NCBI RefSeq assembly: GCF_035084215.1
Contig: NW_027139559.1
Coordinates: 7,378,001 to 7,442,000 of the forward strand
Length of the DNA stretch: 64,000 nucleotides
Direction: 5' to 3'
Source: Heptranchias perlo
Lineage: Eukaryota
Shown here: positions 16,431-62,339 of the stretch, one piece after another
How positions within the stretch are numbered: the first letter of the stretch is position 1
How the letters are laid out: each line of letters starts with the position of its first letter
Notes under the pieces: generated by a model
What the model was told of the DNA's origin: nothing
Seen by the model: only the letters and a program-made list of their open reading frames with translations
Databases searched by the model: none
Program-made: the position numbers and the translations under genes

Positions 16431-16487
16431 TTAATTAAATGAGACAGGGACTGACGACAGCAAACTGGTCAAAAGTGTTATCGGGTA

Positions 16488-34517: not shown

Positions 34518-34526
34518 TTAGTTCAC
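34518..34526 (-). CDS. IgNAR TM2 exon, coding part (V-N-stop); cytoplasmic tail K-V-N
   Basis: Minus strand tactatttcttttcactgcAG|GTG AAC TAA: strong polypyrimidine acceptor in phase 0, matching the TM1 donor, and the short K-V-x tail typical of membrane Ig. Confidence 0.7.
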   Translation of the reverse strand: MN

Positions 34527-36804
34527 CTGCAGTGAAAAGAAATAGTATGAAACCCAGTGAATAACAGAGTGAGGAAGTGACGTGTGACCACACTGAATAG
34601 TCAAAAGCGTAGGACAAAAAGCAGAATTATTGACGAATTGTCATGGAATGCGAGGGGGTTTCTGGGATTCGAGTGTTATTGTCCACAAATGAATGTCCAT
34701 AATCCTAACTCTCGAAAACACCCCTCGTCGCGTGTCTCCGTGAGTCTATAAATGATAAGAGAATCATTTGTAATCCAATATTATTTATACGGCCATAATT
34801 ATATGATTTCTGGAAAAATGTGACGATCCATGTGAATTGTCGCTAGGCTCCAGCAAACCTAGTATAGCCTCTTGTAAGTTTCCAATGAACTGAACATGAT
34901 ATTCCAAATGATTGGCGGTTTCTCTAGCTTGCTGTTATATTCTAGACTGCTTGAGCTGAAACCCAGCATCCCATTAGTACTTTTGAACGCCCGCTAGATT
35001 TCAGTGACACACGGATATGAACAACGGCATTTCGTGTTCGTGTACATCTCCTCAGAACTTCGCCATTTCCATATTATTCCCATCTACCATTCTTAGACGT
35101 CAAATGGACAACGTCATTTGTTGTTTCAGTGAACTGGACCTGTCAACCATCTGCCCACACGCTTAATGCAGCTATCTTCTTTTGTAATTTTCTGGTCCGT
35201 TCACAGTTCATTGTACTTCGTTGATTAGTATTAGCAGTAATCTTGTATATATACCCCTCTGCTCCTGAGCCATTGGTGAAGTGTTTGAGGTATAAATCTG
35301 ACATGGTTAGGAACTGTATTCATTCCCCATTTTAATGTAATGCAACGTGTCCCAGGTTCCAGATAATACGCTGATTTTACGTTGTTTCTCTTAAAGCTAA
35401 ACAGCAAAATTTACATCACTGTCAGAAGCAGAAAAGTGCAGTAGGTTGGAGTATAGAACTTTCGCTGTAATTCAATCAGAAGAGATGGGAGACGCGAGAT
35501 CGCACTTCAGCGCTATTACTGGTTGGGATGTGTCATTGAAGTGTGATAAGTGTCGATTGACAAATACTTGCAAATGTGGTGATCGGAATTTATAATGTAA
35601 TTAGAAAAATAAGGTAGAATGTATGACTTTGGAATGTGAAGAGAATTAAACCTGCACACCTGTTCAATTATCCTCAGCTCTCTATCACTGAGGCAGAACT
35701 TGCTCTCGACCGTCCCAGTGCAATGCCAAGGGAATTCCATGTGTGTGCATGAGAGCAATAGACTTAGATAGATAGCGAGATAGATAGATTTCTTGAAAGG
35801 CCGACAGACAGACAGAAAGACAGACAGACAGGAATGGAGAGCGAGAGAAACTGCAAGGTTTCATTCACTTTCAAGGTGTAATTGGTTACAATTTGATGGC
35901 TAGCAGCTTTTTAATTTCAGACACATTCGATGCCTCTATCTCTCGGTATACAGTAATCGCTCTGCGATGACATTGCATAAAGGAAGCTAAAACCAAATGT
36001 AATCTACGGGTTAAGCCTTTATTCATGAGGACGAGGATAATGGGGAAAAGCGCACAAATATATTTTATTTTCCATTTTAAAGTCATGTAGTCGGCCCTTG
36101 TATTTATATAATACTTTGATTTTATGTTACTGTTAATAGTTCAATCGAAAATAAACTAAACAATTTAGGAAGCAGAGACCTAGCGTTGGTTGGAGTTTAT
36201 CTGCAGTACAGGTTGAGTATCCGGGAGAGGCAATGCTGAGCTGCTTTCGATCCAACGATAACTGGAGGATGTCATTATAGCGTATCAAGTTTACATATGC
36301 TGTTGCAATTATTCATGTGGGCATAGATATTTATATTTTTAAAATAGTTCACACAGGAATGGCTTACAATCAAAAGGTTTCAATATATTAAATATTAAAC
36401 AGTAAAAACCGTCTGCCCACACTGGAATGCTGGTGGTCGGATTCCAGCAGATTCCCCGCAGATGGCACTCGTCACATTCCACCAATCTGGAAATTGGTTT
36501 GATTTCTAGGAGTAAGAAATGTCCTTATTTATCCCAGATTACGAACTCCAACAAATAAAACCATTTTCCTATCCATCACATGAGGTTCTTTTCGGTTTCA
36601 CTTGCCTTAATCTTTTCAGTAATCTCTGTATGAAATATAAATTATTTTCCAGTGAAAATCCATATTTAGGACATTTACCAAGCTGACTCTATCGGCTACA
36701 GGAGTGGCTACAAAATCAAACTCTGTAAGGTTGGTTATATCAAACATTAGTGATTCCTTAATCAGTTTATTCTTTCCAAGTGTTCAAATCCCTTAATAAA
36801 AAAA

Positions 36805-38180
36805 AAATCAAAGGGAAGAGGGATAATCCCGGCAACTGTCGGCCAGTCAGCCTAACGTCGGTGATGGGGAAACTTTTAGAGACAATAATCCGGGATAAAA
36901 TTAAGTTGGACTTGGAAAAGTAAAGGCTAATAAATGAAAGTCAACTCGGATCTGTTAAAGGAAAATCGTGTTTGACTAACTTGACTGAGTTAATTGATGC
37001 AGAAACGTGAAATGTTGATGAGGGAAGTGCGTTTGACGTTGTCTTTATGGACTTTCAAAGGGCATTTGATAAAGTACCACATAATAGACTTGTTAGTAAA
37101 ATTCAAGCCCATGTGATTAAAGGGACAGTGGTAGTGTGGATATGATATTTGCAAAGTAACAAATGGTAGAGAGCAGCGGTGAACGGTTGTTTTTCAGACA
37201 GGAGGGAAGTATACACTGGTGTTCCCCAGGGGTCAGTCTTAGAGCCACGGCTTTTTTTGATATATATTAATGACCTGGACTTGGGTATAGAGGGTATAAT
37301 TACTAAATTTGCAGCAGAAACGAAACTGAAAAAAATGTAGTAAACAATGTGGAGGATAGTAACAGACTTCAGAAGGATATGGACAGACTGGTGAAATGGG
37401 TAGACACAAAACAGATGAAATTTAACAGAGAAAAGTGTGAATGGATACATTTTGGTAGGAAAAATGAGGAGAGGCAAAATAAACTAAATGTGCACAGACA
37501 CAAATCTTTGAAGGTGGCAGTACAAGTTGAGAAGGCTATTAAAAAAACATGTGGGAGATCCTTGGCTTTATTAATCGAGGCAGAGAGTACAAAAACAAGG
37601 AAGTTATACTAAACCTTTATAAAACACTGGTTGGGCCTCAGCTGGATAGTGTGTTCAATTCTGGGCGCCACACTTTAGGAAGGATGTCAAGGCCTTAGAG
37701 AGGGTGCAGGAGAGATTTACGAGAATGGTTCCAGGGATGAGGGACTTCAGTTATGTGTGGAAATTGGAGGAACTGCGGTATTTCTCGTTAGAACAGAGAC
37801 AGTTAAGTGGAGATTTAATAGAGGTGTTCAAAATCATGAACGGTTTTGATAGAGTAAATAAGGAGAAACTGTTTCCAGTAGGAGGAGGGTCGGCAACCAG
37901 AGGACACAGATTTAAGGTGATTGGCAAAAATGCCAGAGGCAAAATGAGGGAACATTTTTTTACTCAGCGAGTTGATATGATCTGAAATGCACTGCCTGAA
38001 AGGGTGATGGAAGCAGATTCAATGGTAACTTTATGAAGGGAATTAGTTAAATACTTGAAGGGAAAAATGCAGGGCTATGGGGAAAGAACAGGAGAATGGG
38101 ACTTATTGGATAGATCCTTTAGTCACGATGGGCCAAATGGCCTGCTGCTATGCTGTACCTATTATAATACTATGATATGA
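36805..38180 (+). mobile_element. CR1 RT to 3' end
   Basis: gactttcaaagggcatttgataaagtaccacat; QERFTRMVPGMRDFSY...GDLIEVFKIMNGFDRV. Confidence 0.92.
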
Positions 38181-38639
38181 AATTTTGCACTGCTGCAGTT
38201 AAGCTAACAGGCCCTTCGTTACTTTGCATTACCCCTTTTACTCATTGTGTAAAGTTTACTGTCTCTCTCTTCCATGTCATGACATCTGAATCCAGCGAGC
38301 CTTTGCAGGTTGTAATTAATGTATAGCTAGTTGACTTATCTATTTTATAAATCCTTTCAGATGAAATCCGACTTGTCTGGAAATTTTGAATAGTTTCCAT
38401 TCCAGTAGTTTGTCCTTTGTTATGTTTTTTTTGACATTGAAAACCAATTTCTTTGAATACCATCCTTTCCAACCTATAGTGTTCCAGGTAGCTTTAGATA
38501 TCGTTTGGTCCATTTAAATTGCGAAGATTGCTTCAAAATATTAATTTATTTGTTGTTTTTTCGTTTTCCGTATCCTCCACTGTTATCACCCCTCAATCTC
38601 TTTTGAAAGGAAATGAGAGCTCGTGGAATTGGAGAGAAC

Positions 38640-41445
38640 CTATTGACACGGAGAGGGAACTGGTTAGGAGGCAGGAGACACATCACAGGATATGACTCGT
38701 CGAGTCCCCCGGAGATGTGTTCTCGGTTCTCAGCTTTTCACTCCTTTTATAAATGACTTAGATGAAGGAATAAAGAGGCGCATGTCCAAGTTTGTTGACG
38801 ACCCCGTTAAGTGGCAGAGTAAATAATGAATTAAGGAGCAGAACGTTGCAAAGTGACCTTCATGTGCTAAACTGTGGCCGATGGAGTTCAACATGGGGAA
38901 GTGAGAGGTTATCCACTTTGGACCAAAGGAAGATAGATCAGAATAATTTCTAAATGGTAAGAAGCTAGGAGCCGAGGAGGAGCAGGGAGATTTAGAGATC
39001 CAAGTACAGAAATCACTACAAGCTGGCGGATTGGTACACAGTATAATTAAAAAGGCCTTTGGAATGTTAACTTTTATCTCAAAGGAGCTGGAATACAATG
39101 GGATGTAAGTTATGCTACAGTAATATAAAGCTCTGGTTAGACCGCACTTGGAGTATTGCGCTCAGTTCAAGGCACCGCAATTCAGGATGGATATATTGGC
39201 CTTGGAGGTGGTGCAGCGCAGATTCACCAGAATGAATCCGGGGCTAAAATGGACAATTCATGAGGGCAGGGTGCATGGACAAAGCTTGTACAGAAGATTC
39301 AAGGGACATTTAATTCATGGTATGATAGCATCGTAGTATAGTACAGCACGGAAGTAGGGCATTAGGCCCATCGTGACTATGCCGGCTCTTTAAAAAAGAC
39401 CGATCCAATAGGTCCCATTTCGCTGCTCTTTCCTCATAGTCCTGTATAATTTTTCCATTCAAGTATTTATCCAATGGAGTTGAGATACACATCGTCCATG
39501 ATCTAATTCAATGGCATTCAGTTCTGGGCACCGCATCTCAGGAAGGCTATTTTGGCCCTGGAAACGGTGCAGCGCAGATTCACCAAAATGATACCGGGGG
39601 CTGAAGGGGGCAATTCATTAGGACAGCTTGCATTTACTAGACTTGTATAGAAGATTAAGGGGTCATCGAATTCATGGTATCGAAGTATCATATCACAGTA
39701 CAGCACGGGAGGAGGCCTTTCGGCCCGTCGTTCCTCAGGCGCTATACAAATAGTCCCACCGACCTGCTCTTTGCCCATAGCCCGGTACATTTTTTTTCCT
39801 TCAAGTATTTATCCAATTCCCTTTGAAAGTTACCACTGAATCTGTTTCCTCCACCCTTCCATCAGTGCATTCCAGATCATTAAAACTCGCTGCATAAAAA
39901 AGTGTTTCTTCATGTCACGTGTGGCTCCTTTGCTGATCATCGTAAATCTGTGTCCTCTGGTTACCAACAATTCTGGTAACAGTTACCTTTATTTACTCTA
40001 CCAAAACCGATCATGATTTTGAACACCTCTATCAAATCTCCTCTATACCTTCTTTGTTCTAAAGGGAACAACCCCATCTTTTCCATTTGCTCCAAATAAC
40101 TGAAGTCCATCATCCCTGGTACCATTCTGGTAAATCTCTTCTGCACCTCCTCTAAGGCCTCGACGTGATCCTAAGGTGTGATGTCCAGAATTCCACACAA
40201 TACTCCAGCTGAAGCCTAACATGCGTTTTATGAACGTTTAGCATAATGCCTTTACTTTCGTACTACATTTCCGAGTTTCGTGTCATCTGCAATCTTTGAA
40301 ATTGTACCCTATATACCCAGTTCCAGGTCATTAATATATATCGAAAAGAGCAGTGGTCCTAATACTGACCCCTGGGGAACACCACTCTGTCTGAAAAACG
40401 ACCATTTACCACTACTCTCTGTTTTCTGTCCCTGAGCCAATTTTTACGTCCACGCTGCCACTGCCCCTTCAAACCCATGGGATTTAATTTTGCCAACACG
40501 TCTATTGTGCGGTACTTTATCAAATGGCATTTGAAAGTCCATATACACAACGTCAACCGCACTAACCTCATAAACCCTCTCCGCTACTTCAGGAAAGAAC
40601 TCAACCAAATTAGTCAAACACGATTTGCCTTTAATAAACGCCTGCTGACTTTCATTTATTAGCCCAAACTTTTCCAAATGCCATGGTTATTGTCTCTGAA
40701 ATTATCCGCACGACCGACGTTTGTCTGACCAGCGTGTAATCGCCGGGTTTTTCTTTTTCCATTTTTTTGTACAGGGGTTAACATTTGTAATCCTTGAGCC
40801 CTCTGGCACCGTCTCCATATCTTGGGAGGATTGGAAGATTGTGGTCAGAACCTCCGCAATTTCCACTCTTACTTCCCTCACTAATCTTGGATGGATCCCA
40901 TCTTGTTCGGGTGACTGTTCTACTTTGAGGACTGCCAATCTTTTAAGTACCTCCTCTTTATCTATTTTTATCCTATCCAATATCGCTACTACCTCCTCCT
41001 TTAACGCTGCAATGGCAGCATCCTCTTCTCTAATGAAGACGGATGCGAAGTAATCCTTTCGTACCTCTAGCGTTTTAGTGTTTAAGATGATTAAAGGATT
41101 GGAAAGCGTAGATAGAGAGAAACTACTTCCTCTGATGGGGGAGTCCAGAACAAGGGGGCATGGTCTTCAAATTTGAGCTAATCCGTATATAGGTGATGTC
41201 AGGAAGCACTTCTTCACACAAAGGGCAGTGGAAATCTGGAACACTCTCCCCCAAAAAGGTACTGAGGCTAACAAAATTGAAAATATCAAAACTGAGATTG
41301 ATAGATTGTTGTTAGGTAAGGGTATTAAGGGATATGGAACCAAGGCGGGTAAATAGAGTTGAGATACAGTTCGTCCATGATCTCAGTGAATGGTGGAACT
41401 GGCTGGAGGGGCTGAATTGCCTACTCCTGTTCCTCTGTTCCTATG
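38640..41445. mobile_element. Nested CR1 cluster: plus-strand copy (38640-39310, resuming 41075-41445) interrupted by a minus-strand copy (~39680-41070), with a duplicated junction
   Basis: EYCAQFKAPQFRMDILALEVVQRRF (+); KSCLTNLVEFF...DVVYMDFQMPFDKVPH and DGIHPRLVREV (-). Confidence 0.85.
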
Positions 41446-42324
41446 TAAGAACCACATCTGCACTTCTATCATTCTATTTCTTTTGATGCAACGATAAAAA
41501 TATTTGATATTCTCCTTAATATCCCTTGGAATTGTTGTCTATCTGATGGTGCATTTCATAATTTCATGATATCCTTTTATTTTTGATAATAGTTCTGGCT
41601 GTCAAACTTTCCATTGTCTTCGCCTTGACATAACCTTTCCCCTTTTGTTTAATTCTGGCTCTAACTATTTAATTTCACCATAATTACATCATCCATTTAC
41701 AATTTCCATTTCTGGGATTGTATTTTCTTTTGCTCGCTGATCACCTTCTTGAATCAATTGCACTAATTGTCCATCGATTTACCGACTGAAATTTATCCCA
41801 TCCTTCCGCCGTCATTACTTTCCTTATATCTTCATAGTGAGGCAGGTTTAAGTGCTAAATCACTGTTTGCTGATCTCCTTTCTCCCTCGCAAATTTGATG
41901 GTGACTTTAAGCACGTCACGCTAAGTCGTCCCAGGATGCTTCCTTATCAAGATATTGCTAACTATTTTTGGATTATCACTCAGAAACATTCGATAAATCT
42001 CTTTCCTTTTTAGTGTGCTTCTAACCTTCCCCAATCTAGATATAAAGTAATACTTCCCATTATTGGTATTTTCTTCTGCTGAAATGTCTCAATAATTGTC
42101 GTACACTTGCGTTCCTCTGTTGTTATCATATTCAGGAGGATTTATAAATGTGCTAGTTAATCACTTGGGAACGAGTAATGAAGTCCAATCTAATACTGTT
42201 ATGTTCATTGTGCTTGTATTAGAATATTTTGTTCATCATTTGTACCCAGGTTATGTCTAAGGTATGAACTCAGCTTTCTACTGAATTTACACAATGTCAC
42301 TGTGCTATTGAAAGATGATATTAC

Positions 42325-42482
42325 CTTAAGTACGGTTACAAATGTACTGTACAGCATACTGAGAATAAACAGAATCACGAAAGCGATCACTGTTGATGCC
42401 GTGCTGCCATCCTCATATAAGTTTTCTAATCCTTCTTCCTCTACCTCGGGGTCTTCTGGATCGTCCTTTAATTGAGGGGTTT
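42325..42482 (-). CDS. IgNAR transmembrane exon TM1
   Basis: Acceptor ttctAG (42484-42483), donor AAG|GTAAT. Encodes (E)TPQLKDDPEDPEVEEEGLENLYEDGSTASTVIAFVILFILSMLYSTFVTVLK: acidic spacer plus the conserved antigen-receptor TM (CART) motif F..LF.LS..YST.VT..K. Confidence 0.93.
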
Positions 42483-43944
42483 CTAGAACCAATAGATTGA
42501 TATTGTTAGAAAGGTGGTCATGTTGAGAACAGAATAGATACAAAGGCGCTGCAATAGAATGAAACCGGCAATCGTGAGGGATACGGCGTATTCGAATTTG
42601 AACTAACGGAACATAAAAATATAGTTAACACATTAACCAGCCCGATATCGATTACGGTGATTTTCAGAATATTGGGGGTTCGCTTATAGTGATAGTAGAG
42701 TTCAGATATTGTATATAAACGGAGGATTGATTTTACTCGGCAAATATATCCGTCCATTTTACGTTTCAGCGAATAAAAAGCTTTACGATGCTGATAAGTG
42801 CTTTCCATTAAAATTAATTTCGCATTTGAAAGCTGATAACAACAAAATGAACGAAATTATATCTAAAAGAATGAAACTCGATGCCATTCTGAACAGAAGG
42901 TGATCTGATTATCGGACCAAATCTCTTGCGGCTCACATAGAATGACATAAGAGATCGGCAGTAAAGCGGGGGCAGGGAAACACTGCGGGCTAAAGATTCA
43001 ACTTTGACTGATCAGCGCACTTTATGTTCGACTGTCGAAACCTTTTGACATTTTATATCAAATGTTGCTTGCAGATACAGACACATTCTGAAATAGGACT
43101 ATATATAAACTATTTTACATTGTCATCTATACAGTGGCGTTAGACCTGCATCATTGTCATTAGATTTAGTTGTGATTTACGGTGATGACGCTGACATTCT
43201 GTTCGGTTTCGTATTCCTGACGTGATATATTTCTTTAGTAATTTTTTGTTTTTTCTATTATTATTATCTCGTGGAATCTATAACACACCGCAGCGTATAT
43301 TCCTGGATGGTGCCACTAATATTCCGTGATATAAACACGTTATGTACGTTTACCCCGTACGTTTTGGCCATGAGAGTCAGAATTGAAAATGAAGTTAATA
43401 ATTCATTTAAACTTCGGAATGTGTCACCACTGACAAATCTCGGGTCATGTAGACTCTCAGGTTATGATAATCCTGGCCGATATTTCGGGAGGTGGGGTGA
43501 GGGTAGGGCTTTGTATTTGCATTGAGTGTGGGCGATTGGATTCTGAAACTCAAAGCATCATAATCGCAGTAGTGACTGACCTGGCGCAGAGTAAACTTTG
43601 TCATATTGTTACAAATTCGTATGGTCATTTACAAATCATAAGCTTCACTCTACGAGTGTTATTCTACATTGAACTGACATGCTGCGTGATCTAAATAGCA
43701 CCAAGCTGGGCCGCAAAACCGACCCCAAAGCAAGTCCTGTCTAATCACACCGAAGCTGAATCTACGGTGAGCTATCCGAGTTCGAATGCACTTCTTTAGC
43801 ATCATCTGATTACATATTGTGGGATTCACAGATTGGCACCGTGAGAAGGACAGCACATCAATTTGCTCACTAACTCGGTGCAGCTGGGCATACGTCGAGC
43901 CACGAACTGAAGGATGTGTTATTTGCAGTGTGAGATAAGCAGCA

Positions 43945-44280
43945 CAGCGAGATATCCTCCAGCATGGAGAGATACCATAGCCCATAGAACAGCGGCTCCA
44001 TCCACTCGCGGAGATATCCTCCAGCATGGAGAGATATCCTCCAGCATGGAGGCATACCACACCCCATATAACTGCGGCTCCACCAACTCACTGAGATATC
44101 CACCGGAATGGATACTTACCTTATCCAATAGAAAGGAGGCTCCACTCGTTCATCGAGATATCCACCGGAATGGATCAATAACATACCCCTTAGAATGGCA
44201 GCTACACCCAGTCACCGAGATATCCTCCAGCATGGACAGATACCATATGTGATGGAACGGCAGCTCCTCCAGATGGAGGT
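43945..44280. repeat. Degenerate 62-bp tandem repeat with a 20-bp internal duplication
   Basis: gagatatcc(tccagc/accgga)atgga at 43949, 44011, 44031, 44093, 44155 and 44217. Confidence 0.85.
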
Positions 44281-44884
44281 ACCAAGATTCAGCAACATCT
44301 GCTTGGCTCTCCGCCAGCCAGTCATGATGGTTGCCCAATGTTGGATACGTGAGCGTATTTTCCCATACCTGACCACCAGGTGCAGCCTTCCCTGACCTGG
44401 CCGATCTCAAAACAATTGTTTAGTCTCCTGCCTTGTGACTCCCACAGGATACCAATTGTAACAGAAACTTAACAGAATGAACTGTGTTTAAGGTGATTGG
44501 TGTAATGGCTTCGTGCTGTTCTGTTTTTTGCAAGACTAGTTTTTTCCCGCCTTTCAGAAGGTGGTGAGTCTTTACGGATGGGCCTGGATGTCGCCCTGCC
44601 CACCAGTTCTCCAACCTGGACAATTTGTTCAGGCGGAGCGTCTGCGCTTATCAAGTTTCAACGGGACACTCGAAATAACGTCCTGTTTTTCTCTTGGGAA
44701 GAAAATGCAGCGCCACCGTTGGCGGCAAGGGCTCGCTGTCGGCTGGGATTCTCAAAGAATATTCTTCATCTCTGTCGCTCAGCTTTCCATTGGCCGAATC
44801 TGTGTTTCTCCCTGACCTGTGTTTTAACTGAAGTGATATCAGCCAGAATGACGACGATGATAAGAAACAATGGTTCCATTTCAT

Positions 44885-45330
44885 AGATCGCCTTTCACCC
44901 CCACAGGAGGTCTCAAAAGTTTCACAACCAAATAATTACTTTTTAAAGTGTAATCGCTGTTACTTTTATAAACAACCCCGCAGCCAATAAACCCAGAACA
45001 AAGGTCTAAGAGCATCACTGTCGTTAATGGGACGCTTAGTCTGTTTTTTTAAATAGTGTAGGTTCAGGACGGAATATAGGTCCCAGATTGCGGGAGAGTT
45101 CGCTGCTCCTTTAATCTCCCATGGGATCTTTAACACCCAGGTGAAAAGTCCGACGGGGCCCAGGAGAAGCGTCTCATCTGAAACGCCACACCTTCGACAA
45201 AGCAGCACCCCCATGATTATTGTGCTGGAGTGTTAGCCAAGATTATGGGCCGAAGTCCTGGAGAGGAGCTTGAACCCACAAGCTTCGAATTCAGAACCCA
45301 GAGAGCTGTCAATGAGCCAAGATGACACGA
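44885..45330 (-). mobile_element. tRNA-derived SINE with Deu-like central domain (SacSINE1/AmnSINE-like) and L2-type tail
   Basis: Minus strand: TGGCTCA..GGTTCAAG head, ...ttcagatgagacg...ttaaagatcccatgg... core, ...gtgaaaggcgatctat tail. Confidence 0.7.
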
Positions 45331-45409
45331 AACTGATAAGAGGATAGTTCCAAACTCAATGAAACCTTTTACAATGGCATGGATTGATAGCTCAATATAA
45401 GAACAATAT

Positions 45410-46535
45410 TACTTTCATTTATACAGCGCCTTTAACGCAGGAAAACGACTCAACGCGCTTCACAGGAGCGCAATCAGACAAAATTTGATACCGAGCCATA
45501 TAAGGAGATATTAGGACAGATGACCAAATGGTTGGGTAAAGAGGTAGGTTTATACAGGGTGTTAAAACAGAGAGAGTTGGAGAGTCGCAGAGGTTTAGGG
45601 AGAGAATCTCAGAGGTTAGAGCCAAGGCAGTTGAAGGCACGGCCGCCAATAGTGGAGAGATGAAAACCAGGGATGGACAAGAGGCCAGAACTGGAGGAAC
45701 GCAGAGATCTCGGAGGGTTGTAGGGCTGGAGGAGGTTACAGAAATAGGGAGGGGACGAGGGCTATGGAGGAATTTGGACACGAGGATGAGAATTTTAAAA
45801 CTGAGGTATTGCCAGACCGGGAGCCAATTTCGCTCACCGAACACAGGGGTGATGAATGGACTTAAATTGTTGTGAGTTAGAATACGGACAGCAGAGTCAA
45901 GTTTACGGAGGATAGAAGCTGGGAGGCTGGCCAGGATACCATTGGAATAGTCAAGTCTGGAGGTAACAAATGCATGGATGAGAGTTTCAGCAGCAGATGG
46001 GTTGAGGCAGCCGCAGAGACGGGCGACGTTATGGAGGTGGAAGTAGACGGTCATGGTGATGGAGAGTATCTGGAGTCGGAAACTCAGCTCAGGGTCAATA
46101 AGGAACTCGAGGCTGCGAACAGTGGGATTCAGCCTCAGACAGTGGGCAGGTGGAGAGATGGAGTCGGTGACTAGGGAACAGAGTTAGTGGTGGGGACCAA
46201 AGATAATGGCTTTGGTTTTCGCAATATTTAATTTGAGGAAATGTCTGCTCATCTAATACTGGATGTCGGATAAGCAGTGTGACAAATCAGAGAGAGTGGA
46301 GGGATCGAGAGTGGTGCTAGTGGGTTACAATTGGGTGTCGGCAGCATAAATGCTGAATCTGACATTTTGTTTTCAGATGACGTAGCCAACGGGCAGCACG
46401 AAGATGAGAAATAGGAGGATCCAAATATAGATCGGTGGGGGGACTCCAGAGGTAACGGTGTGGGAGCGGGAAAAGAAGTCATTGCGGGAGATGCCCAAGC
46501 AACGACTGGATGGATAAGAATCGAACCAGGCAATC
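45410..46535 (-). mobile_element. L2-clade LINE 3' portion
   Basis: AETLIHAFVTSRLDYSNGILASLP...WLPVWQYLSFKILILVSK; tail ...aaaggcgctgtataaatgaaag. Confidence 0.9.
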
Positions 46536-46827
46536 AACAGCCTTGGTCAATAATTGTCATTCGAAAGGGTGACCGGATGTTAGTCGACCTTTATTAATTC
46601 CGTTCACAGGTCGATAACTCATGGGTCAATTTAAACCAGAGAATGAATGTAATCTGATTAAAAGCATCACGAGTGTTTGTAAAAAATTGGGGAATTGAAA
46701 CGTGTTGCACAGGTGGAATATTAGACAATGGACACCATAGATTTCTGGATCAAGGTTTAAACCATCATCACCAAGATAACACGCACACAAACAACGAATC
46801 GGGAAGTCAGGAGGTTTTCATTCTGCA

Positions 46828-46833
46828 TTTATT
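46828..46833 (-). promoter_or_regulatory. Polyadenylation signal of the secretory IgNAR mRNA
   Basis: AATAAA ~285 nt after the tailpiece stop, followed by a GU-rich tract (ttgtttgtgtgcgtgtt). Confidence 0.65.
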
Positions 46834-47118
46834 GCGATTTGCGGAGCCACATACAGTCTAAAGCATCATTTCCTGTTTATCCAATAACGTCACTGAACCC
46901 TTCAAAGAATCTTCAAAAATATTGCAACTTGTATCAAGCGGTATTAAGGTTATTCACCATTATCGGATTATAACCGTAATCATCCTTCATTCACTGATAT
47001 AGTCTCATAGATTTGCGAAATATCTAAACAATCGTTAGCTGATCTGGAGGTTGACTCAGATGCCCGAACATAACAGGTCTAACACTTCTATAGAAAACAG
47101 CTATTGAACCACGGGGGG

Positions 47119-47501
47119 TTATGTACACGATTGAAAACTGTCGGTTAGAACTAGTGAAACATTAACTAAAGTAGGTTTACCGTAAGATTTATTTATACTT
47201 CTGTGTAAATTCATTGTGAGAGACGGGTGTCCCACTAAACAGGAGTAAGTGGTCCCGCCGTTCCACTCCGCTGCGGTGACTCTCAGTCTGCTGACAATGG
47301 AGCTGGAACCACTTTCCTTCTCCGTGTCCGGTTGGGTGGTGTAACCTGAATCCAAAAGGGTGTCATTGGCCATCCACGCGACGTAAATCTCGGCAGGGTA
47401 AAAGCCGGTTGCTAAACACACCAGAGTTGCCGTCTTCTCAGTGTCAATCTCGACCGCTGATGGAGGCAGGACGTAGACTTTAGGAGGATACATTCCGTCA
47501 A
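47119..47501 (-). CDS. IgNAR C5 domain plus secretory tailpiece (internal donor after 47181 for the membrane form)
   Basis: Acceptor tctttccAG. (V)DGMYPPKVYVLPPS...TLVCLATGFYPAEIYVAWMANDTLLDSGY...YSCLVGHPSL...NKSY G|GTAAA; tail GKPTLVNVSLVLTDSFQSCT*. Confidence 0.95.
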
Positions 47502-47849
47502 CTGGAAAGAGAACAATATTTGTTAAACTGAGTCTGTCTCCTGTCCGTCCTTCACTTCCCATTCCCGTCTGCTGGTAATTTGCGTCTTTGGACAATTGGA
47601 ATTGTTATCTGAGAGAGTTTACACATTTCTCTGCGGGGCCATGGATTTCTTTAATGTTCTTTCTTTTGGGAGTTTTCATTGTGGCCTGATGTTATTTTGC
47701 TAAGAGTTGGGGACAATCTCATATTTGGATAACGATGATACTGTTGTGACGCAACAGTTTCAAACCGCTTACATTTTTCTCGCTATTCTTTACCCGTGGG
47801 GTGAATGGCAGAATCCCGTACTATGTTTCACTGATTATACGAGCATTTC

Positions 47850-48552
47850 ATGATATCATAGAATTGTTACGGCCCGTCGAGTACGTGCCGTTTCTCTGCA
47901 AGAGCAATCCAGCTCGCCCCACTCCCCTGCCCGATTCCCGTATCCCTGCAAAATTATGTCCTCTGGTTCTTGACCCTTCACCCAATGGGGGCAGTCTCTC
48001 TCCATCGACACAGTTTCCACCCTTCATGATTTTGAATACCTCGATCAAATGTTCTTGTAAACTTCTCTGTTCTAAGGAAAACAGCCCCATCTTCTCCAGT
48101 CTAACCACGTACCGAAGTCCTTCATCCCTGGAACCATTCCATTAAAACTCTTCTGCACTCTCCCCAAGGCATTCACATCCTCCCAACAGCGCGGTGCCCA
48201 GAACTGGTCACAATACTCCAGTTGTAATCGAACCACTGTTTTATAAAGATTCATCATAACCACCTTGCTTTTGCACTCTCTGCCTCTATTTATAAATCCC
48301 AGGTTCCCCTAAGCTTTCTTAATCGCTTTCTCAACCTGCCCTGCCACCTTCAACGGTTTAGGCACATATACCCCCAGGTCTTTCTGTTCCTGCTCCCCTT
48401 TCAGAAATGTACCCTTTAGTTTATATTGCCTCTTCTCGTTCTTCCTTCCTAAAGGTATCAATTCACACTTTTCTGCGTTGAATTTCATCTGCCATGTGTC
48501 CGTCCATTCCACCAGCCTGTCGATATCATCTTGAAGTCTATCACTATCCTTA
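47850..48552 (-). mobile_element. CR1 3' portion filling most of the C4-C5 intron
   Basis: WQMKFNAEKCE; LEYCDQFWAP; LEKMGLFSLEQRSL. Confidence 0.9.
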
Positions 48553-48628
48553 ATGTAGAAAATGAATGATCTTTGACGACCATTGATGGAGTAGCGTCAG
48601 TCTCTGAACGAATATTATCTGTGCTTAC

Positions 48629-48949
48629 CCTTTACTTTTCTGGTGGAGATTTTCACTGGTGTTGGCAATTCAATGTCTTCCACGAAGCACAAATATTCAA
48701 CCCCACTGCCCCATTCTGTCGTGGTGACTTTTAGTTTACTAACGATTGTGGATTTACTTCCATTCCACTCAGGAGCCTGAGTCTCCACTCCTTCCGTTCT
48801 CCGACTCCCATCCACTTGCCAGGACACGCTGACGTTTTCTAAATCGCTATAAACGACTTCACAAACAATGGTCGCTGTTCGTTTGGTCCAAATCTCTTCA
48901 AAAGAAGGGTTCAGTATGATGACAGAAATGTCTGTCTCATGACATACAC
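48629..48949 (-). CDS. IgNAR C4 domain exon
   Basis: ttctttccAG...G|GTAAG; 321 nt, phase 1-1. (G)VCHETDISVIILNPSFEEIWTKRTATIVCEVVYSDLENVSVSWQVDG...EYLCFVEDIELPTPVKISTRKVK, with the extra N-terminal Cys seen in IgNAR C4. Confidence 0.95.
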
Positions 48950-49850
48950 CTGGAAAGAAGAGGGAATGGTCATTTCAAAGTGTCATGTTGAAACCACGGG
49001 TAATAACGACTGCAACATACTCAAAAAATTAAATTATACTTACTGTCGGCTGTTATGAGTTTTCTCAGCTTATTTCTGCTGAGCTATTAGGACAGAGCCC
49101 ATCTTGGCTCGTTGCTTTCTTCCCTCTGGCTTATTTGGATGATGTCCTCCACAATATATCCGACCATTCCACTATTTGAGAACTGACTGGTTTTAAATGG
49201 GGACCTCATTTTGCCCGCTCTGGTGATACAAACCTTCACCAATCAGACTGACTGATGCTGGATGTCAAACGCTGCCCTGTGGCCTGTATGTGGTGGGTTC
49301 CAATAAACCTCATGTAAAGGTCCTATATTTTCCAGTCCTAAAGCTTGGGTCTGAAATGAGATTGCCTCGGTCCGACCAATCAAATCAACGGCGAAAGCAA
49401 ACGTGCCCTCAGCACCAATCTGCAGATGTTCTGCACCATTTGGCACCGATTTTGCTCTTTCACTTAGAGAAGGTAGACAGTGTCGAGAAATACAAACTGC
49501 CAATCAGGCCGAGGAAAGAGCGCTTTTGGAAGGTTGAGCTTTAAGACGCATTGTTTGAAGAGTGTAAAGTGAGGAAGTCCATGACCTGTCGATGATATAC
49601 CTTGTCCACACTTGCTCGATATCTACACCTTGAGAGCAGGAACGGAAATACTACCAGAAAGTGGGAAAACACTCCTCCAGTTTTAAAGTGAAAGAGTCAC
49701 TCTGACCGTCGAGATCGTTACTTTATGCATGAGATACAATCTCAAAGAATCCTCCCACCGCGTTCTCGCTGAAAGCTTAATGTATTACTCTGAAAATTAT
49801 AAACTCCGCCTTCATTATATTCAACTGGGATGTGAACTCTGAACTATCCA

Positions 49851-49918
49851 ACACCCCCACAGTGGACCAAAGTGCCCATTGCCAATGGGCACGTCACTTT
49901 GGTCCACTGTGGGGGTGT
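49851..49918. repeat. Nested perfect hairpin (24-bp outer arms)
   Basis: acacccccacagtggaccaaagtg ... cactttggtccactgtgggggtgt, enclosing gtgcccattg-c-caatgggcac. Confidence 0.9.
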
Positions 49919-51669
49919 CCAATATTAAAACTTTGTTTTGTAATCTTGCACTAAAATTGCTCCGTTTCTTTCAATGATGCCAATGCTCCAGAGGGGAGTG
50001 TTATAAAACCTGTTTCCAGACTGATTGTAATCACTTCCATTCTCTCTCCTTCCAGCTTCTCAGATATGACCATATACTTGTCAACAGTGATCTCTGATTT
50101 AAACACATTAGATTATCATCCTTCCATAAAATGAGTGGGGTTTATTTCACAGTGTGTGTTCCAAGGTCACTCTTATCTGAAGGGGTTTGGCGATTTCTTC
50201 ATTTCCAAAAATGACCATCCTTTAGCAGTAAAACGACATGATAGGAGGGCAAGAAGAAAACAGATGATTGGTTATATCAAGATGAATCATCTCCACAAGT
50301 TCAAGCAGGAAACTGAGTTACAACACAGGGGTATTTGGAAGGAACGAGCAGCAGAAATTTCACCTGAAGGAAATGCTGTGATTGCAGCAATGAGATCTTT
50401 ACCTCAGTCTTCTAAAATGAAGACAATGGGCGACTTTAGTTTCGGGGAAGATTGACCTGGGATCTGTAATATACTAAGGGGAGAAAAAAGTGTGTGCTGC
50501 AAAGGAAGTCGAAGCCTTTGATTCACATTGGATGAGCAGACCCGACGGGAGAATATCGTTAATAACAACAGAAAATGCTGCAAAAATCAGTAGCTCTGCG
50601 GCATCTCTACACAGAAAGGATAGCGTGGGGCTTAGGAGGTCAGACAGTTCCAGAGACTGGGTTTGAGTTCTCAGTAAGGATCTTACAACACTATCTATCT
50701 TTACAGATTCTGACGGGCCTGCTCTGTTTTTCTCGCAATTTCTATTCTAATTTCTGATTTACAGCATGCTCAGTTTAGTTTTAATTTTAACTGTACTAAT
50801 TGGGATATATTCCTGGATTCCCAACGAACGAAGTAAGAAAGCACCCCAGACTCCTCCAGGTAGTTTAAAAGTATGTTAATGCATGGCTTGCACCTGAGGG
50901 CAGTACGATGCCACATTGGAAAATTGGAATCAAACCCAAACAGGGAGAATCATGTAACAGTTTATGGAGCAGCAGATCTGGAGGAAAAGTCTGATGTACG
51001 CTTTACAGGATATTATTAATGATCGTCTAACAATCACCGTGACAGTGGAGTGAAATTGGTACAAACTATTGTTCTGGGAAGTCCACGTTAGGTTTTATGC
51101 CACCACTGGGCTATTTGAGTAGACACCTAAATGCACTTCGATTTTCAGAAGAAACATCATTAAAAATCAACTTTCTCGGTCTGTGCAGAGCACGAATTAT
51201 CAACGACCTAATAATAAATTGGGCAACCGCTGGAAAATGGCCTTGGTACCATAGGTTAATGGTGCTGGCTTTCCTGGAGGGTAATTAGTTGTACTTCTCC
51301 ACAACATTGTAGCGTCGATCCGCTGCTGCTTCATCTAATAAATCACGGAAAAGTCAACTGACATTTTCACATTTGTCAAAGACTGTTTTTGGAGTGGTCA
51401 GAATTGAGCGACAACCAAAAGGCATAATTCAGGGGCTTAACCTTGATATCTGAGGGAGCCAAAGATTGAGTGAAAACGTACAGAAGTTCTTATAGCAGCA
51501 ACAAGTGTGGCGATTGTAGTTGTAACGATGTTCTTTTACTCTGACTCTCATTCACCTGAGTTGCTGAAATAAACCGTGTAGGTTTTGGGTGAACTTCAGT
51601 CCGCTGAACATTCTGTGGAAATCTAATGATCCGGGAATAGGACTAGAAATAACAAAACGAACAAGACTA

Positions 51670-51900
51670 TTTTCATACATACGGAAGGTGGTAAAACCTT
51701 GATTAGGTCCCAGGTCCCGCGCTGAACTTTCCTCCCTAATCCTCTCCGCCTCTCCCCCTCCTGCTCCCACTTTCAGACCCTCCTCCAAACCCAACAAGCT
51801 TTTGGTCACACCTCATAATCTCCCCTTATTTAACTTAGTTATGTTTTCCTTAAAACTCTGTGAAACGGTATGAGGCGCTTAAAGGTGGGAAATAAATGTC
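51670..51900 (+). mobile_element. CR1/L2 3'-tail fragments
   Basis: ccctaatcctctccgcctctc...aagcttttggtcacacctc...ctctgtgaaacg resembles the L2 tail at 45410-45640. Confidence 0.55.
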
Positions 51901-53324
51901 TGTGTTTTATTGCTAATCCGGTACAGGCTTCACTGAGGAAGGTCGCCTTGGGTATCTCTCAAGTTGCCATTCTTCGTGAATCAGCAGAATGAGTGCGTTT
52001 CAACAGCTTACTCTACGGTGAAAGCAGCAGAGCCCCGTCCAATCCTGCCGTCAGCAGAGGTGTGAACACCCCGACTTCAACTAGGTCTCTCCCAATTGGA
52101 GGAAGAAACAAGAACGGGTGTCTGCACAGTTACCCGGATGTGCGTAGTCCACCGTAACTTCCAAAAATCTACCAGTTGAGATCAGTTAACTCAGTGAAGA
52201 TCGGGAGGTGAAACACAGGAGGAGGAGCCCGAGTTTGAGTCTAATAACAGTGTTTGCTATTATATCCCCTCTTTTCCTCACTGGTGTATGAGAACTATAG
52301 GTTGCCCTCCGGTACCTCATCCAATGGTCTATACTTTCTGAGTCCTCCTATGCAGTATCAGCAGGCCATTGTACAGTGAGGGCATCGCAGGCAACTCCTA
52401 TCTTGTTGTTCCCAGAGTGACCACACACGCACTTATCATAGACCAGGAGCAGAACAATGCGCTATTGCCACTTCACAAATCTAGGGACACTAAGTCTGAT
52501 TATAAGGTCCCGAACGCCACCAGGTGAGATCAACAAACTCAGCAGTAATCGGGGATCCAAACAAAGATCTAGAGAAGATTAAAAGTTTCCCCACCCAGAG
52601 CACGGTGGTGCTGGGCCAGTTATTGAGCAAATGAGTCAATTTGATTGAACAAAAACAATTCGAATTGAAACAAACTAATCACACGAGCGGAGTTTACACT
52701 CATCAAAACAAAAGGTCACATCATTGGGTTCAGTCAATTAACACGTTATTTGTCTCCTCCTCTAACGTATAGCGCTGGCGGTTCAGAAGATTTGAACACT
52801 TGAAATGTACAAAGTTCCTCACATCAATTGGTTCGGTGCCCTGTGAAATGGCTGTTTTTTTTTGTCTTGAATTTCGCTGCTGGCAACCACTCAGTGTCCA
52901 GCTAAACCTAAAGCAGGAAGTGCAGAGTGAAGTAAACACCACTCAAAGTCTTCTCCCCACATAGTATGGAACACTCTGCCTGGTGAAAAGTGGATTTCGT
53001 GTCTTCAGATACTGCATATTGTTGTTTAAAGAAAGCCCACAATCACCAGGGTACCGCGCAGTGAGGTTAAATAGATCCTTATCCTGCCCCTTCTTACTAT
53101 TGGGTCCTCACATAGCTTGTGGCGGCGAACACATTCAGAGTGCTGATCATTTTATCGTCTAATTGCTGCCTGAGAATTAAAGCCGCATTAATTGATAGCC
53201 ATATATGTTGTTAAATCTGTAACCTAGAGGGATCTGATCGCGAGTGCGTGTGTGGTTCGGGTTTGGCCTTAGATTTAAGTAAAAATCATTATTGTGTGAA
53301 AGTATTTTGAAAAACGGTCCGTAC

Positions 53325-53642
53325 CTTCCAGATTGCGGATGGTCGCCTTCACGTCGGATTGTGAAGGGGGGTGTGAGGCGGTACAGGTGTATCTTGATCC
53401 TTTCTTCCATTCCTCTGAAGGCAAAATGAGGTTGCTCCTTGTGCTGAAGGTTAGGTCCTGTTCAAGAGCACTGGGGAAACTGGTAACGTTCGTGCTTAAA
53501 GCAGCTCCGTCCTTCTCCCAGGAAACGATTATGTTGTCAGGGTAGAATCCTGTTATCAGGCATGTGAGAGTCGGGGCGCTCCTACTTTGACTCTCCTCTG
53601 GTGATGGAGGAAGGAGGCGGAGCTTTGGCTTCATTGGCTCGA
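53325..53642 (-). CDS. IgNAR C3 domain exon
   Basis: ccgttacAG...G|GTACG; 318 nt. (V)EPMKPKLRLLPPSPEE...LTCLITGFYPDNIIVSWEKD...ALEQDLTFSTRS...YTCTASHPPSQS. Confidence 0.95.
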
Positions 53643-53718
53643 CTGTAACGGAAGTTCAATAAGTGTTAGTCTTCCATCCATTGCCATTCGAAGACATGTC
53701 TATAGATATTTTACCCAC

Positions 53719-54021
53719 CTCTTGTCTTTCCGGTTCGTTTTAATACCGGAGGAGATGATTGATTCTCTTGTGCAGAGCACGAGTATTCAACCCCGCTATC
53801 CCACTCTGCCACGCTGCTGGTCAAGTGGCTGATGGTCAGGTATTGGTTTCCATCCTTTTTAGCCGGTTCAATTTGAACTCCTTCATTCTTTATCTTTCCA
53901 CCCACTGTCCAAGAGATGGTAACCTCAGTGGGAACCGTAGAGACCACTTCACACACCAGGGTGGCAGTTTTATTGATCCAAACTTCGACAACGGAAGGAT
54001 CTCTGAGAAATACCGCGAGCT
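53719..54021 (-). CDS. IgNAR C2 domain exon
   Basis: ctcactgacAG...G|GTGGG; 303 nt. (E)LAVFLRDPSVVEVWINKTATLVCEVVSTV...SWTVGGKIKNEGVQIEP...QYLTISHLTSSVAEWDSGVEYSCSA. Confidence 0.95.
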
Positions 54022-54219
54022 CTGTCAGTGAGAAACGAGAGATTCAGAATCGGGGCGATGATTTAGTGTTGATGATTTCGGAAATTTAACAAGGATTTTA
54101 ATTTCATTGATAATCCATAACAGGGCAAGGTCTCTTACTGATTATTATTGAATTTTTAAAAATATTTTTGGTGTTTGCGCGTATGTTGAGTCGAATCAAA
54201 ACTATGTACAACTCAACGA

Positions 54220-54790
54220 AACTAAGAGAGAGAGAGAGAAACAAGAGACAGAGAGAGAGGGACATGGAGAGACAGAGCGTGACAGACAGATAGGGAGAGA
54301 GGCAGGGAAATAGACTGATAGAGAGAATCAGAGAGAGAAGGACAGAGAGAAAGAAAAAGGAAGAGACAGGCGAACAGTTAGAGAGAAACAGGGTGAGAGA
54401 GCAAGACAGAGAGAGACGGAGAAAGGGGGACACAGAGAGAGAGAAAGGGACACAGAGAGAGACAAATTGAGAGAGACAGATATTGAGAGACAGCAGAGCG
54501 AGAGAGAGAAACAGACAGAGAGAGAGTGAGGGACAGAGATAGAGAGGCACAGAGAGAGACAGACAGAGAGAGATGTAAGGACTTGCACAACACCAGGTGA
54601 AAGTCCAACAGTTTTATTTTCGTCACCTGACGAAGGAGGTAAGCTCCGAATGCTTGTGATTTAAAATAAAACTGGTGGACTATAACCTGATGTTGTGCAA
54701 GTCCTTACATTTGTCCAGCCGTGTCCATCACCGGCATCTCCACATCATGACAGAGAGAGAGAGAGAGGGAGAGAAAGAAAGAGAGAAAGA
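54220..54790. repeat. Purine-rich (GA)n/(GACA)n low-complexity tract
   Basis: gagagagaga/gacagaga runs; explains the Leu/Ser-rich ORFs. Confidence 0.95.
54573..54748 (+). mobile_element. Second palindromic Penelope-like short element, with a mutated hammerhead core
   Basis: 48-bp arms at 54573-54620 and 54663-54710 (4 mismatches); loop TCAC-CTGACGA-AGGAG-GTAAG-CTCC-GAAT-GC-TT-GTGA; same tail gtccatcaccggcatctccacatc; apparent TSD gacagagagaga. Confidence 0.82.
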
Positions 54791-55546
54791 TTGACTGAAT
54801 TCTACAGCTCAGAGGGCCATTCGGTTCATCGTGTCTGCTGGCTCTCTGAATGTGCTATCCACTTAGTCGTATTCCCCGGCCCTTACCCGTGTCTTTTAAA
54901 CATTTTTTTTTAAAGGAAGAACAGCTTATTGTTGCGGGTTTTGTGACCGTATCTGTAGGTTCAATCTTTATACAGCACCTCCTCTCTGTCTATCTCTCCC
55001 TCTTTCTTTCTGCTTTTCTCGTTTCTATCTCCGTCCGTCTCTCACCCGTTTCATTTTTTAGAACACATTTTTGTACTGATATCCAGTATCACACACAATA
55101 AATCCTCACAAATGTAAAAAGTAACAGAACCGCATTGTTAAAGTTTGATCCCTAGTGTGTAAAACATACATTTCTGCTCTGTTTCCTTCCTGTTTCACGT
55201 GGATTGATCTGGTGAATTAATTAAATAGGATGTATCACAATTATTTGTAAATTGCTTGCAATATCATAAAAGTGTTTGATCAATGTGTTACCCTGACCAT
55301 AGAATAATATTCATGTATTTGTCAAGATCTCATAGTCATGCCTTTTGCAACATCCGCCTGGCAGCGAGCACCTTCAGGAACCTCAGCCATTGCTGCTGAA
55401 ACATCCCCAACTATCTTTACTGTCTCACTGCACCATAAACTGGCACAGATAAATTATCACAATAACATCCCAACTAATCCAATACTGAGAAAGAAAGTCA
55501 ACATGTTTCACCTGTGCAAGCTTGTGAATTGGTTGCATTTTCTCAC

Positions 55547-55864
55547 CTGATGTTTTTCTAATGTCTTTCCGCTGGTTACTGTTGGTTGCAGAATGGGACA
55601 CTTGGCAGCTGTAAAGAGACCCGCTGTTCCATTCCTGCAGGGTGACTTTAAAGAGACTCGTGGAGCTAAAATCACCATTCGAATTTTTAACTGGGGATGT
55701 GGTTGTAAAGCCCGATTGTACAGCGTTTCCGTTCTTCTGCCAGCTCACTGCAATGCTTTCTGGCTGATATTCGCTGATGAGGCAAACCAGTTGCACAAAA
55801 CCCTTTGCTGTCAGTTCGTCACTTGCAGAGTAGAGGAGACTGATGATCGGTGGAGTAAGTTGCA
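55547..55864 (-). CDS. IgNAR C1 domain exon
   Basis: ttttctcAG...G|GTGAG; 318 nt. QLTPPIISLLYSASDELTAKGFVQLVCLISEYQPESIAVSWQKN...GFTTTSPVKNSNGDFSSTSL...YSCQVSHSATNSNQRKDIRKTS closely follows the IgNAR C1 pattern. Confidence 0.93.
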
Positions 55865-55902
55865 CTGAGAAAATTACAATGACAATTAAACCGTTTATAT
55901 CG

Positions 55903-55972
55903 AGTCCTGGCCAATACTTATTCCTCAACCAACACCTAAAAACAGATTATCTGGTCAGTATCACGTTGCTCG
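55903..55972 (+). mobile_element. Deu-type SINE core fragment just upstream of the C1 acceptor
   Basis: gtcctggccaatacttattcctcaaccaacacctaaaaacagattatctggtc. Confidence 0.55.
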
Positions 55973-56905
55973 CAGCCACGGACACCGTCAAATTAAACAC
56001 ACATGGATGCATTGAAGCTGGGTTTGAATGTGCTGATATTACAGTGGGCGTGTTGGGATAAATGAGTTCCGGTCATGAACGAACATTCAAATAATGTTCT
56101 TATCACTTCTTAATTTCGGAGTGAATAATGATCAATTTATTTTAAGAAAAATATCTATACTGTCCAGTGGTGTGTAGTTGCAGTCAGATTTTAAATGTAC
56201 ATCGATTATTGTTACCAGTAACATGCTTTAATTTTCCTGGGGATGGAGCAGTTTCATGCCGTCACTTTACCGGGAAATATTTTGCAACCGGCGTTTCTTA
56301 AGGAAGGAATTGTTTGGATTTCTGGACGATTGCAGCAGCGAGTTTGTAAATCAGAGGTCAGAGACAGCAATGGTTTTGGTAATGTTAGGCGAAGGAGTGA
56401 TAGAGTTAAAATATTTTACATTACAGAAGGATTCATTCGGCCCATCGCGCTACTACGGGCTCTGTGGAAGAGCTATCCGCTTCCCAGTGGAAACTCCGCT
56501 GGACCCGCCCATGGCTCACAGCGGGAGAGTACATGGGGAAATTGTAGATTCCCGGCCCGTGATATTATATCTATTCACCTTAAGGGAGCGATAATCAGGG
56601 CTGGATGTGCGCAGTCCGATTCTCCTCTTCTTTCCCGGTACATTCTTTCTCAATATTTGCCTTCTTCCTTTTAACCTAATTTCCAGGGCTACGGGGATGA
56701 GCAGAGGAATGGGTCTAATTGGATAGCTCTTTCAAAGACCCAGCAGAGGCACAATCGGCCGAATGTCCTCCCGTGTGCTGCACCTACTATGATACCATGA
56801 TTCTGCAAACAGCATTGTTTATGGTTGGAGGTTCCGTGTCCTGACAACCATCTCCATAATAAAAATAAATCTCCAAATATCTCCATTCATCTTTTGCTGA
56901 TGATC

Positions 56906-57210
56906 TGAAACTTATACCCACGAGTTATAGCCCACGGTAAACAGTTTCCCTCCATTTAAACTTATAACCACGAGTTCTCAACCACGGCAAATAGTTTCCC
57001 TCCATTTACACTTATAGCCACTAGTTATAGCCCACGGTAAATAGTTTCTCTCCATTTAAAATTATACCCACTAGTTATCGACCATGGCAAATAGTTTCCC
57101 TCCATTTAAACTTATACCCCCCAGTTACCGCCCACGGCAAATAGTTTCTTTCCATTTAAATTGATACCCGCTAGTTATCGACAACGGCAAATAGTTTTTT
57201 CTCCATTTGG
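56906..57210. repeat. 50-bp tandem repeat, 6 copies
   Basis: aacttatacccacgagttatagcccacggtaaacagtttccctccattta; period 50 (56951 to 57001). Confidence 0.92.
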
Positions 57211-57269
57211 CTTATCAAATACAGTTACAATTTTACTGCCGCTTCACTTTCTGGTTCTCAAGAAAATAG

Positions 57270-58240: not shown

Positions 58241-58261
58241 TGACTATCTAATATTTACGAT

Positions 58262-60700: not shown

Positions 60701-61134
60701 GATTCCACTTTTTAATTCTACTCTTAGTATTTCGATTTGCCCAAGGAACTTCCGAAAAATCTTCTTCACAACTTCCTAAATAACATTTCCAAAATCCCTA
60801 AATCCAAATTTCAATGGACTATAAACCAGTCGCTGCGAGAGCGCCGTTTCACGTTGGTTAGAAAGAAGCACAGCGAGATAAAGAGCACATTGTTTTCAGG
60901 GAAGATCAGAAGACTGGGGCAAATTTATTAAAATCAGGCTCCAGCCATTCGGGAATGTGCTCCTCAAAATTTGCCAATGACTGAAGTGAACAGATGATGA
61001 ATCATTCCGAAGCGTCCACCCAAATTCACAATATGTGCTGTGGGCCAGAGAGGTTTCGCGCTCTGAATGTCTGAAAGTGAGATATCCAATCAAATAGATA
61101 TACTTTAAGTATGCAAGGAACATAGCATAACACA

Positions 61135-62240: not shown

Positions 62241-62339
62241 TAGGCAGGGTTGGGCTGGATTCGGACAAAAGCCTTCAAAATAATGCTGCTGAAACAATGA
62301 ATTAGTCAGAGAGAAAGAGATAAATCTCAAAGGACAACT

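Follow-up and report, generated by a model that had tools for sequence, protein, structure and literature searches.

Sharks and rays possess an antibody without light chains, IgNAR. We analyzed a 64,000-nucleotide stretch of the Heptranchias perlo genome (genome size 3.25 Gb; the stretch G000:C1392:7378001-7442000 is hereafter the window) and found that the window, together with the DNA just past its end, contains an IgNAR cluster arranged in the order leader-V-D1-D2-D3-J-C1-C2-C3-C4-C5-secretory tail-TM1-TM2, with all segments present and open. We consider it very probable that this locus is an intact, germline-unrearranged cluster that is rearranged within itself and expressed as a light-chain-free, type II-like homodimer. 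The arrangement is that of a textbook IgNAR. The window cluster typifies a known kind of gene and belongs to a set of roughly ten similar copies that the genome carries.

Constant-region exons

In a six-frame scan of the window, the minus strand showed five open frames of Ig type, which correspond to the exons C1 (55547-55864, 318 nt), C2 (53719-54021, 303 nt), C3 (53325-53642, 318 nt), C4 (48629-48949, 321 nt), and C5 with the secretory tailpiece (47119-47501). C5 proper runs from 47501 to an internal GT donor after 47181 (321 nt) and continues into the tailpiece, which carries an N-glycan sequon, has Cys as its penultimate residue, and terminates with the stop codon at 47121-47119. All five C exons have an AG before and a GT after them, a length that is a multiple of three, and phase 1-1, and all score above the Pfam cut-off for the C1-set (E 1e-22 to 5e-11); an earlier note made from the letters alone, which had listed five stop-free C1-set exons of 318, 303, 318, 321, and 321 nt, was right in each case.

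The tailpiece and the two membrane exons claimed in the earlier note were all located as well. The TM1 exon (42325-42482, minus strand) encodes an acidic spacer and a transmembrane helix, and is 46% identical to the transmembrane end of the Chiloscyllium punctatum IgNAR P0003 (E 1e-6). After a 7.8-kb intron, the TM2 exon (34518-34526, minus strand) contributes 9 coding nucleotides, V-N-stop, followed by the 3' untranslated region (UTR), and the resulting C-terminal TVLKVN of the membrane end is identical in P0003. The TM1-TM2 joint is present in all four runs of one sample that we guessed to be RNA (the X1-X4 series, used as assembled contigs). Among the nine copies whose fetched DNA reached that far, the window copy included, TM1 is 99-100% conserved and TM2 is found in every one. 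An AATAAA at 46828-46833 (minus strand) is likely to serve the secretory mRNA as polyadenylation signal, and an X4 contig ends at 46821. The intron between C2 and C3 (53643-53718) has a length of just 76 nt and is spliced in all four runs.

When spliced in silico, the secretory form (547 codons), the five-domain membrane form (582 codons), and the three-domain membrane form (368 codons) are each open up to one stop at the end. In the spliced constant region, the extra Cys near the start of C4 is situated in the C3-C4 linker at position 315, and the terminal Cys of the secretory tail is at position 545. C1 contains the two canonical Cys only, with no spare Cys for a light chain. IgNAR chains dimerize via C1 and C3, and their C3-C4 linker is disulfide-bridged, according to excerpts of PMC4622739.

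Comparison of the domains with IgNAR and IgW

We compared the window with three IgNAR and three IgW reference proteins using tblastn, which gave 164 matches. Only four of these lie outside the six exons, all near 23 kb with an E of 0.75 or worse, and none of the six proteins detected a CH1- or VH-like exon between 55864 and 64000, in agreement with the earlier statement that the 8 kb upstream lack CH1. This interval is the in-window part (55865-64000, minus strand) of a J-C1 intron of 9.4 kb in total. The full-length best matches in the PDB are novel antigen receptor domains, 4q97 for C1 (E 2e-43), 4q9b for C2, and 4q9c for C3, and an IgA1 chain tops the C1 search by its summed multi-domain score only.

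In the comparison of identities, each of the five domains is nearer to IgNAR (61-82%) than to IgW, whose homologues of C2-C5 reach 41-66%. C1, which the earlier note had described as following the IgNAR pattern, is 71-77% identical to the C1 of three named IgNARs. The identity is 61-75% to IgNAR C2 versus 41-54% to IgW C3 for the second domain, 69-70% to IgNAR C3 versus 47-52% to IgW C4 for the third, 67-82% to IgNAR C4 versus 53-59% to IgW C5 for the fourth, and 67-76% to IgNAR C5 versus 60-66% to IgW C6 for the fifth. A tree was then built from 48 domains, comprising the five of the window, those of seven of the 41 fetched proteins (three named IgNAR, three named IgW or IgNARC, and one IgW-like), and four IgM-like domains from contig C240, with long-branch warnings that affect the IgM-like rows. 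C1, C2, and C3 are placed inside IgNAR clades with supports of 96/99, 98/99, and 99/96, respectively, and none of the five domains is placed inside an IgW clade. What counts against an IgNAR assignment here is that the tree does not resolve C4 and C5 into IgNAR clades; both stand among the IgNAR rows and outside the supported IgW C5 and C6 clades, and for these two domains it is the identities that favor IgNAR.

The IgNARs of Heterodontus francisci (P0001), Triakis scyllium (P0004), and Chiloscyllium punctatum (P0003) differ from the window cluster in sequence divergence only (61-82% identity per domain). In the case of the IgW long form (Carcharhinus P0024, Ginglymostoma IgNARC P0027, and Triakis P0028), C3-C6 are homologous to the window C2-C5, as the earlier note had stated, but the long form has a conventional VH, a CH1, and six C domains, none of which is found in the window cluster. 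That homology is what a reading of the locus as an IgW long form, or as an IgW-derived remnant, has in its favor. Against it stand five C exons instead of six and a VNAR with D and J segments upstream in place of VH and CH1, with J directly spliced to C1; moreover, the loci on contigs C1269 and C1391 are more IgW-like, with 60% C4 identity, a label that we inferred from the identity. With the domain tree and the identities, these features led us to reject the IgW identity, to which we give practically no probability.

The next-best C1 matches in the genome (41-45%) are on contigs C1414 and C240; we take both clusters to be IgM-like from their VH and tail sequences. On C240, two sets of IgM-like C exons (1.05-1.11 Mb and 1.17-1.47 Mb) are situated beside five VNAR-related V exons with 47-52% identity to the window V, which we presume may be NAR-TCR V segments.

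Upstream V, D, and J segments

The leader, VNAR, D1-D3, and J are situated 1.3-3.1 kb past the window edge (L001, minus strand), with the VNAR at 2.6 kb, which bears out the earlier expectation of a VNAR beyond 64000. Inspection of this DNA identified one V, three D, and one J, all with recombination signal sequences (RSSs): the leader at L001 3039-3081; the VNAR at 2626-2897, with an RSS spacer of 22; D1 at 2350-2361, with spacers of 12 and 23; D2 at 2082-2094, with spacers of 12 and 22; D3 at 1690-1701, with spacers of 12 and 12; and J at 1260-1310, with a spacer of 23. Because the spacers read 22, 12-23, 12-22, 12-12, and 23 from V to J, all four joins satisfy the 12/23 rule. Several of the heptamers and nonamers carry one to three mismatches, which weighs somewhat against a fully competent cluster.

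The canonical Cys residues of the V are 61 residues apart, as in both named IgNARs compared, versus 70-72 in three IgW and one IgM VH. Together with the best PDB matches, which are VNARs (32 matches, best E 6e-38), this spacing indicates the deletion from framework region (FR) 2 to complementarity-determining region (CDR) 2 that is typical of VNAR. The V contains Cys at positions 25, 32, and 86 only, including one in CDR1 and none in FR2 or FR4, and has no CDR1 Trp beside the CDR1 Cys; J has no Cys, and D3 can encode a Cys depending on its reading frame. By the definitions found in excerpts of PMC4622739, the V is thus type II-like on its sequence, with a CDR1 Cys, no extra FR2 or FR4 Cys, and a CDR3 Cys obtainable from D3. 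The difference is that the CDR3 Cys here hinges on the D3 frame, and the CDR1-CDR3 disulfide is a predicted one.

We propose that RAG likely rearranges these segments inside the cluster in B cells, and that CDR3 would be built by four joins with N and P additions, allowing a D3-encoded Cys to pair with the CDR1 Cys. Polyadenylation past the tailpiece would yield a secreted five-domain chain, while TM1-TM2 joined to the C3 donor, a joint that is seen, or to the internal C5 donor, a predicted one, would give a B-cell receptor. The product would likely be a light-chain-free heavy-chain homodimer in secreted and membrane forms.

The IgNAR family in the genome

A search of the genome with the V gave 16 matches, of which 11 are IgNAR V copies (72-100% identity) and five are those on C240. 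C1 and C4 each occur in ten copies of at least 93% identity. Eight of the V copies are spread over 6.6 Mb of the 7.8-Mb contig C1392, and three are on other contigs. Five copies are unjoined, five have germline-joined V-D-D, and one is fully joined. The unjoined copies on C1392, with V-D-D-D-J separate, are the window copy and those at 0.80, 2.46, and 5.54 Mb (group A), and those with V-D1-D2 joined in the germline without evident N bases are at 1.65, 3.07, 5.80, and 6.79 Mb (group B). The C402 copy is unjoined and the C284 copy is joined; both may be haplotigs or further clusters, and the DNA search matched at least 40 duplicated blocks.

Group B, with C284 included (L019, L027, L035, L039, and L047), has no CDR1 Cys, an altered hypervariable region HV4, and a Cys in J, and in three of its four copies with C exons the tailpiece has lost the sequon and has a stop ahead of the terminal Cys. 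The 6.79 Mb copy (C1392:6785892; L039-L042) is V-DD-D-J, and the 36 kb fetched beyond it contain no C exon; its likeness to group B stops about 3.4 kb past J. Single changes mark other copies: an in-frame TGA stop in the 2.46 Mb V, a lost TM2 stop (V-N-Q) at 3.07 Mb, Tyr in place of the CDR1 Cys in the C402 V, and the J donor GTAAGA in the 5.54 Mb and C402 copies.

The IgNAR copies are mosaics of one another, which suggests gene conversion or unequal crossing-over. A close pair is formed by the window copy and the 0.80 Mb copy, 6.6 Mb apart, with 100% identity in the leader, V, the three D, and J and a single differing site in the roughly 2 kb of the V-D-D-D-J block (L001:1170-3151 versus L012). 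Such likeness could mean that the assembly has falsely duplicated the 0.80 Mb cluster, yet more than 60 kb of flanking DNA differs between the two copies by 2-4%, and private letters of the window copy occur in the runs, so that we regard an artifact as very improbable. Recent gene conversion or purifying selection fits the V-J block better.

The clusters of the nurse shark and the white-spotted bamboo shark, in excerpts of PMC8692893, PMC5192425, PMC4279169, and PMC11641339, are alike in their V-D-D-D-J-C1-C5-Sec-Tm order, the terminal Cys tail, the three-domain and, as predicted here, five-domain membrane forms, the 22/23- and 12-nt spacers, and the location of several clusters near one another on one chromosome, some with pre-joined D. 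Those excerpts give three IgNAR loci for the nurse shark (PMC11641339) and seven clusters, three of them with pre-joined D, for the bamboo shark (PMC8692893). The genome studied here differs in having 8+3 V copies and a spread of 6.6 Mb instead of 0.8 Mb. The copy number is inside the published range of 2-20 clusters cited in part of PMC4279169.

Transcripts of the family and a probable share of the window copy

Among the 15 of 73 splice joints listed for the window, the C2-C3, C3-C4, and C4-C5 joints, like TM1-TM2, are present in contigs of all four runs, and the C3 donor is also used toward TM1 in two of the four. The J-C1 joint is found in all four runs and the joined leader-V letters in X1, both aligned on the paralogous copy of contig C572. 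A C5-TM1 joint is not among the 15 of 73 listed, which is no sign of its absence, and its frame is open in silico. The IgNAR family is therefore expressed, and, with V and J in place, the cluster is not the orphan that the earlier note had allowed for. The splices, seen in runs guessed to be RNA, cannot be assigned to the window copy.

Some letters in these contigs point to the window copy. Three V letters common only to the window and its 0.80 Mb twin among six group A copies account for 32-43% of the summed X1 V depth. Three J-C1 intron letters that are private to the window copy among 11 assembled copies occur in one X1 contig, and one of them also in X2; one X4 contig of C4 has no differences from the window over 319 nt. 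Because two intron stretches flanking TM1 have zero X1 depth, plain DNA carry-over is disfavored.

Several observations weigh against expression of this particular copy. That the runs are RNA is a guess; they stem from a single sample and consist of contigs that mix paralogues, drop rare variants, and carry no phase. The V is identical to the 0.80 Mb V, and V transcripts cannot be split between the two. At the C2 positions 53764 and 53767, every aligned contig in the four runs has the letters of other copies, so that C2 transcripts probably stem mainly from those. In the contigs of TM2 and the 3' UTR, 13 listed positions depart from the window, with a pattern that best fits the copies at 2.46 Mb, at 5.54 Mb, and on C402.

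The window copy might accordingly be intact but silent or sterilely transcribed, with the mature antibody coming from paralogues. The missing window letters in C2 and in the TM2 UTR would agree with this, as would the intronic nature and low depth (about 42) of the copy-specific evidence, and one of the three nurse shark loci is without detectable expression according to PMC11641339. On the other side, no lesion was found in the exons, splice sites, or RSS spacers of the window cluster, and both the private intron letters and the perfect C4 contig are present in the runs; we judge a silent copy unlikely. Since the contigs merge paralogues and drop rare variants, what holds for the family is graded as likely for a mature mRNA of the window copy, which would in turn give the protein. 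The cluster that the earlier note called potentially functional deserves the term: it has no stops, its RSSs are present, its V type is transcribed, and its private letters occur in intron contigs.

A joined VDJ on contig C572

The fully joined copy is on C572, a 36-kb contig, where an in-frame VDJ at 16303-16654 (L008, L059) contains remnants of D1 and D3, apparent P and G-rich N bases, and one CDR3 Cys. We tallied the sites that separate the window/0.80 Mb pair from the 5.54 Mb/C402 pair, leaving out bases 1-1000 and the repeat-rich 12001-15600. Upstream of the junction, 238 of 239 sites of C572 are of the 5.54 Mb type; between J and 28 kb, 660 of 668 are of the window-pair type; and from 28 to 31 kb, the contig returns to the 5.54 Mb type (44 of 46). 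The cluster type of the flanks thus switches exactly at the VDJ junction. The J-C1 intron of C572 is 0.5-2% from both assembled window-type copies. Contigs of the runs agree with this intron without any difference for 1315 nt in one stretch and for 708 nt in another, where three private sites are included, so that this haplotype of the intron does exist and is probably transcribed. No contig bridging the junction is among those listed, which is no sign of absence. Somatic hypermutation was rejected as the cause of the C572 differences, as the V has zero private changes and the private sites extend along the whole intron, three of them being present in an X2 contig as well.

Our preferred reading, held with a fair preference and well short of certainty, is that C572 is an unassembled mosaic allele or paralogue whose own segments were joined to one another, probably in a B cell. 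It is the simplest, because one 11-kb tract accounts for both switches. A doubtful alternative is an inter-cluster V(D)J join by RAG, N and P nucleotides included, bringing the V and 16 kb upstream from a 5.54-Mb-type cluster to the J and C1 of a window-type cluster. Such a join accounts for the first switch sitting at the junction but requires a second event for the return at 28 kb. IgNAR rearrangement stays within one cluster in excerpts of PMC5192425 and PMC4622739, and "almost exclusively" so in part of PMC4279169; we found no inter-cluster IgNAR join in the literature, a weak negative given that most subscription journals were outside the search. The remaining probability falls to an assembly chimera.

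Neighboring features in the window

An open exon of the rhodopsin family of G-protein-coupled receptors (GPCRs) is located at 7802-8761 on the plus strand (Pfam 7tm_1, E 3e-14), tail-to-tail with the IgNAR cluster. A GPCR copy of at least 87% identity is found 58-65 kb from V in all nine clusters that have C exons and whose contig reaches there, so that the duplicated unit likely includes the GPCR, whose family has at least 150 matches in the genome. The basking shark gene model P0002 likewise fuses a GPCR and IgNAR. The window also contains long minisatellites at 19593-24085 (49-nt unit, 92 times), 25570-26643 (43-nt unit, 25 times), and 16490-16957 (19-nt unit, 25 times), and broken reverse-transcriptase-like frames at 2412-3339, 12996-14704, 40705-41166, 45422-46183, and 57110-57856, which are presumably fragments of long interspersed nuclear elements.

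Significance

The window cluster brings no new biology. Its value lies in the clean annotation of a type II-like IgNAR cluster in germline form, along with its paralogues, as a resource for tracing VNAR repertoires back to their loci, recognizing somatic mutations, and constructing libraries of VNARs (shark nanobodies). The C572 join, if inter-cluster, would break the standing intra-cluster rule for shark Ig genes as given in excerpts of PMC5192425 and PMC4622739. The copy-diagnostic letters make that question testable, and such a join, if true, would add combinatorial V-C exchange to the single-domain antibodies of sharks.

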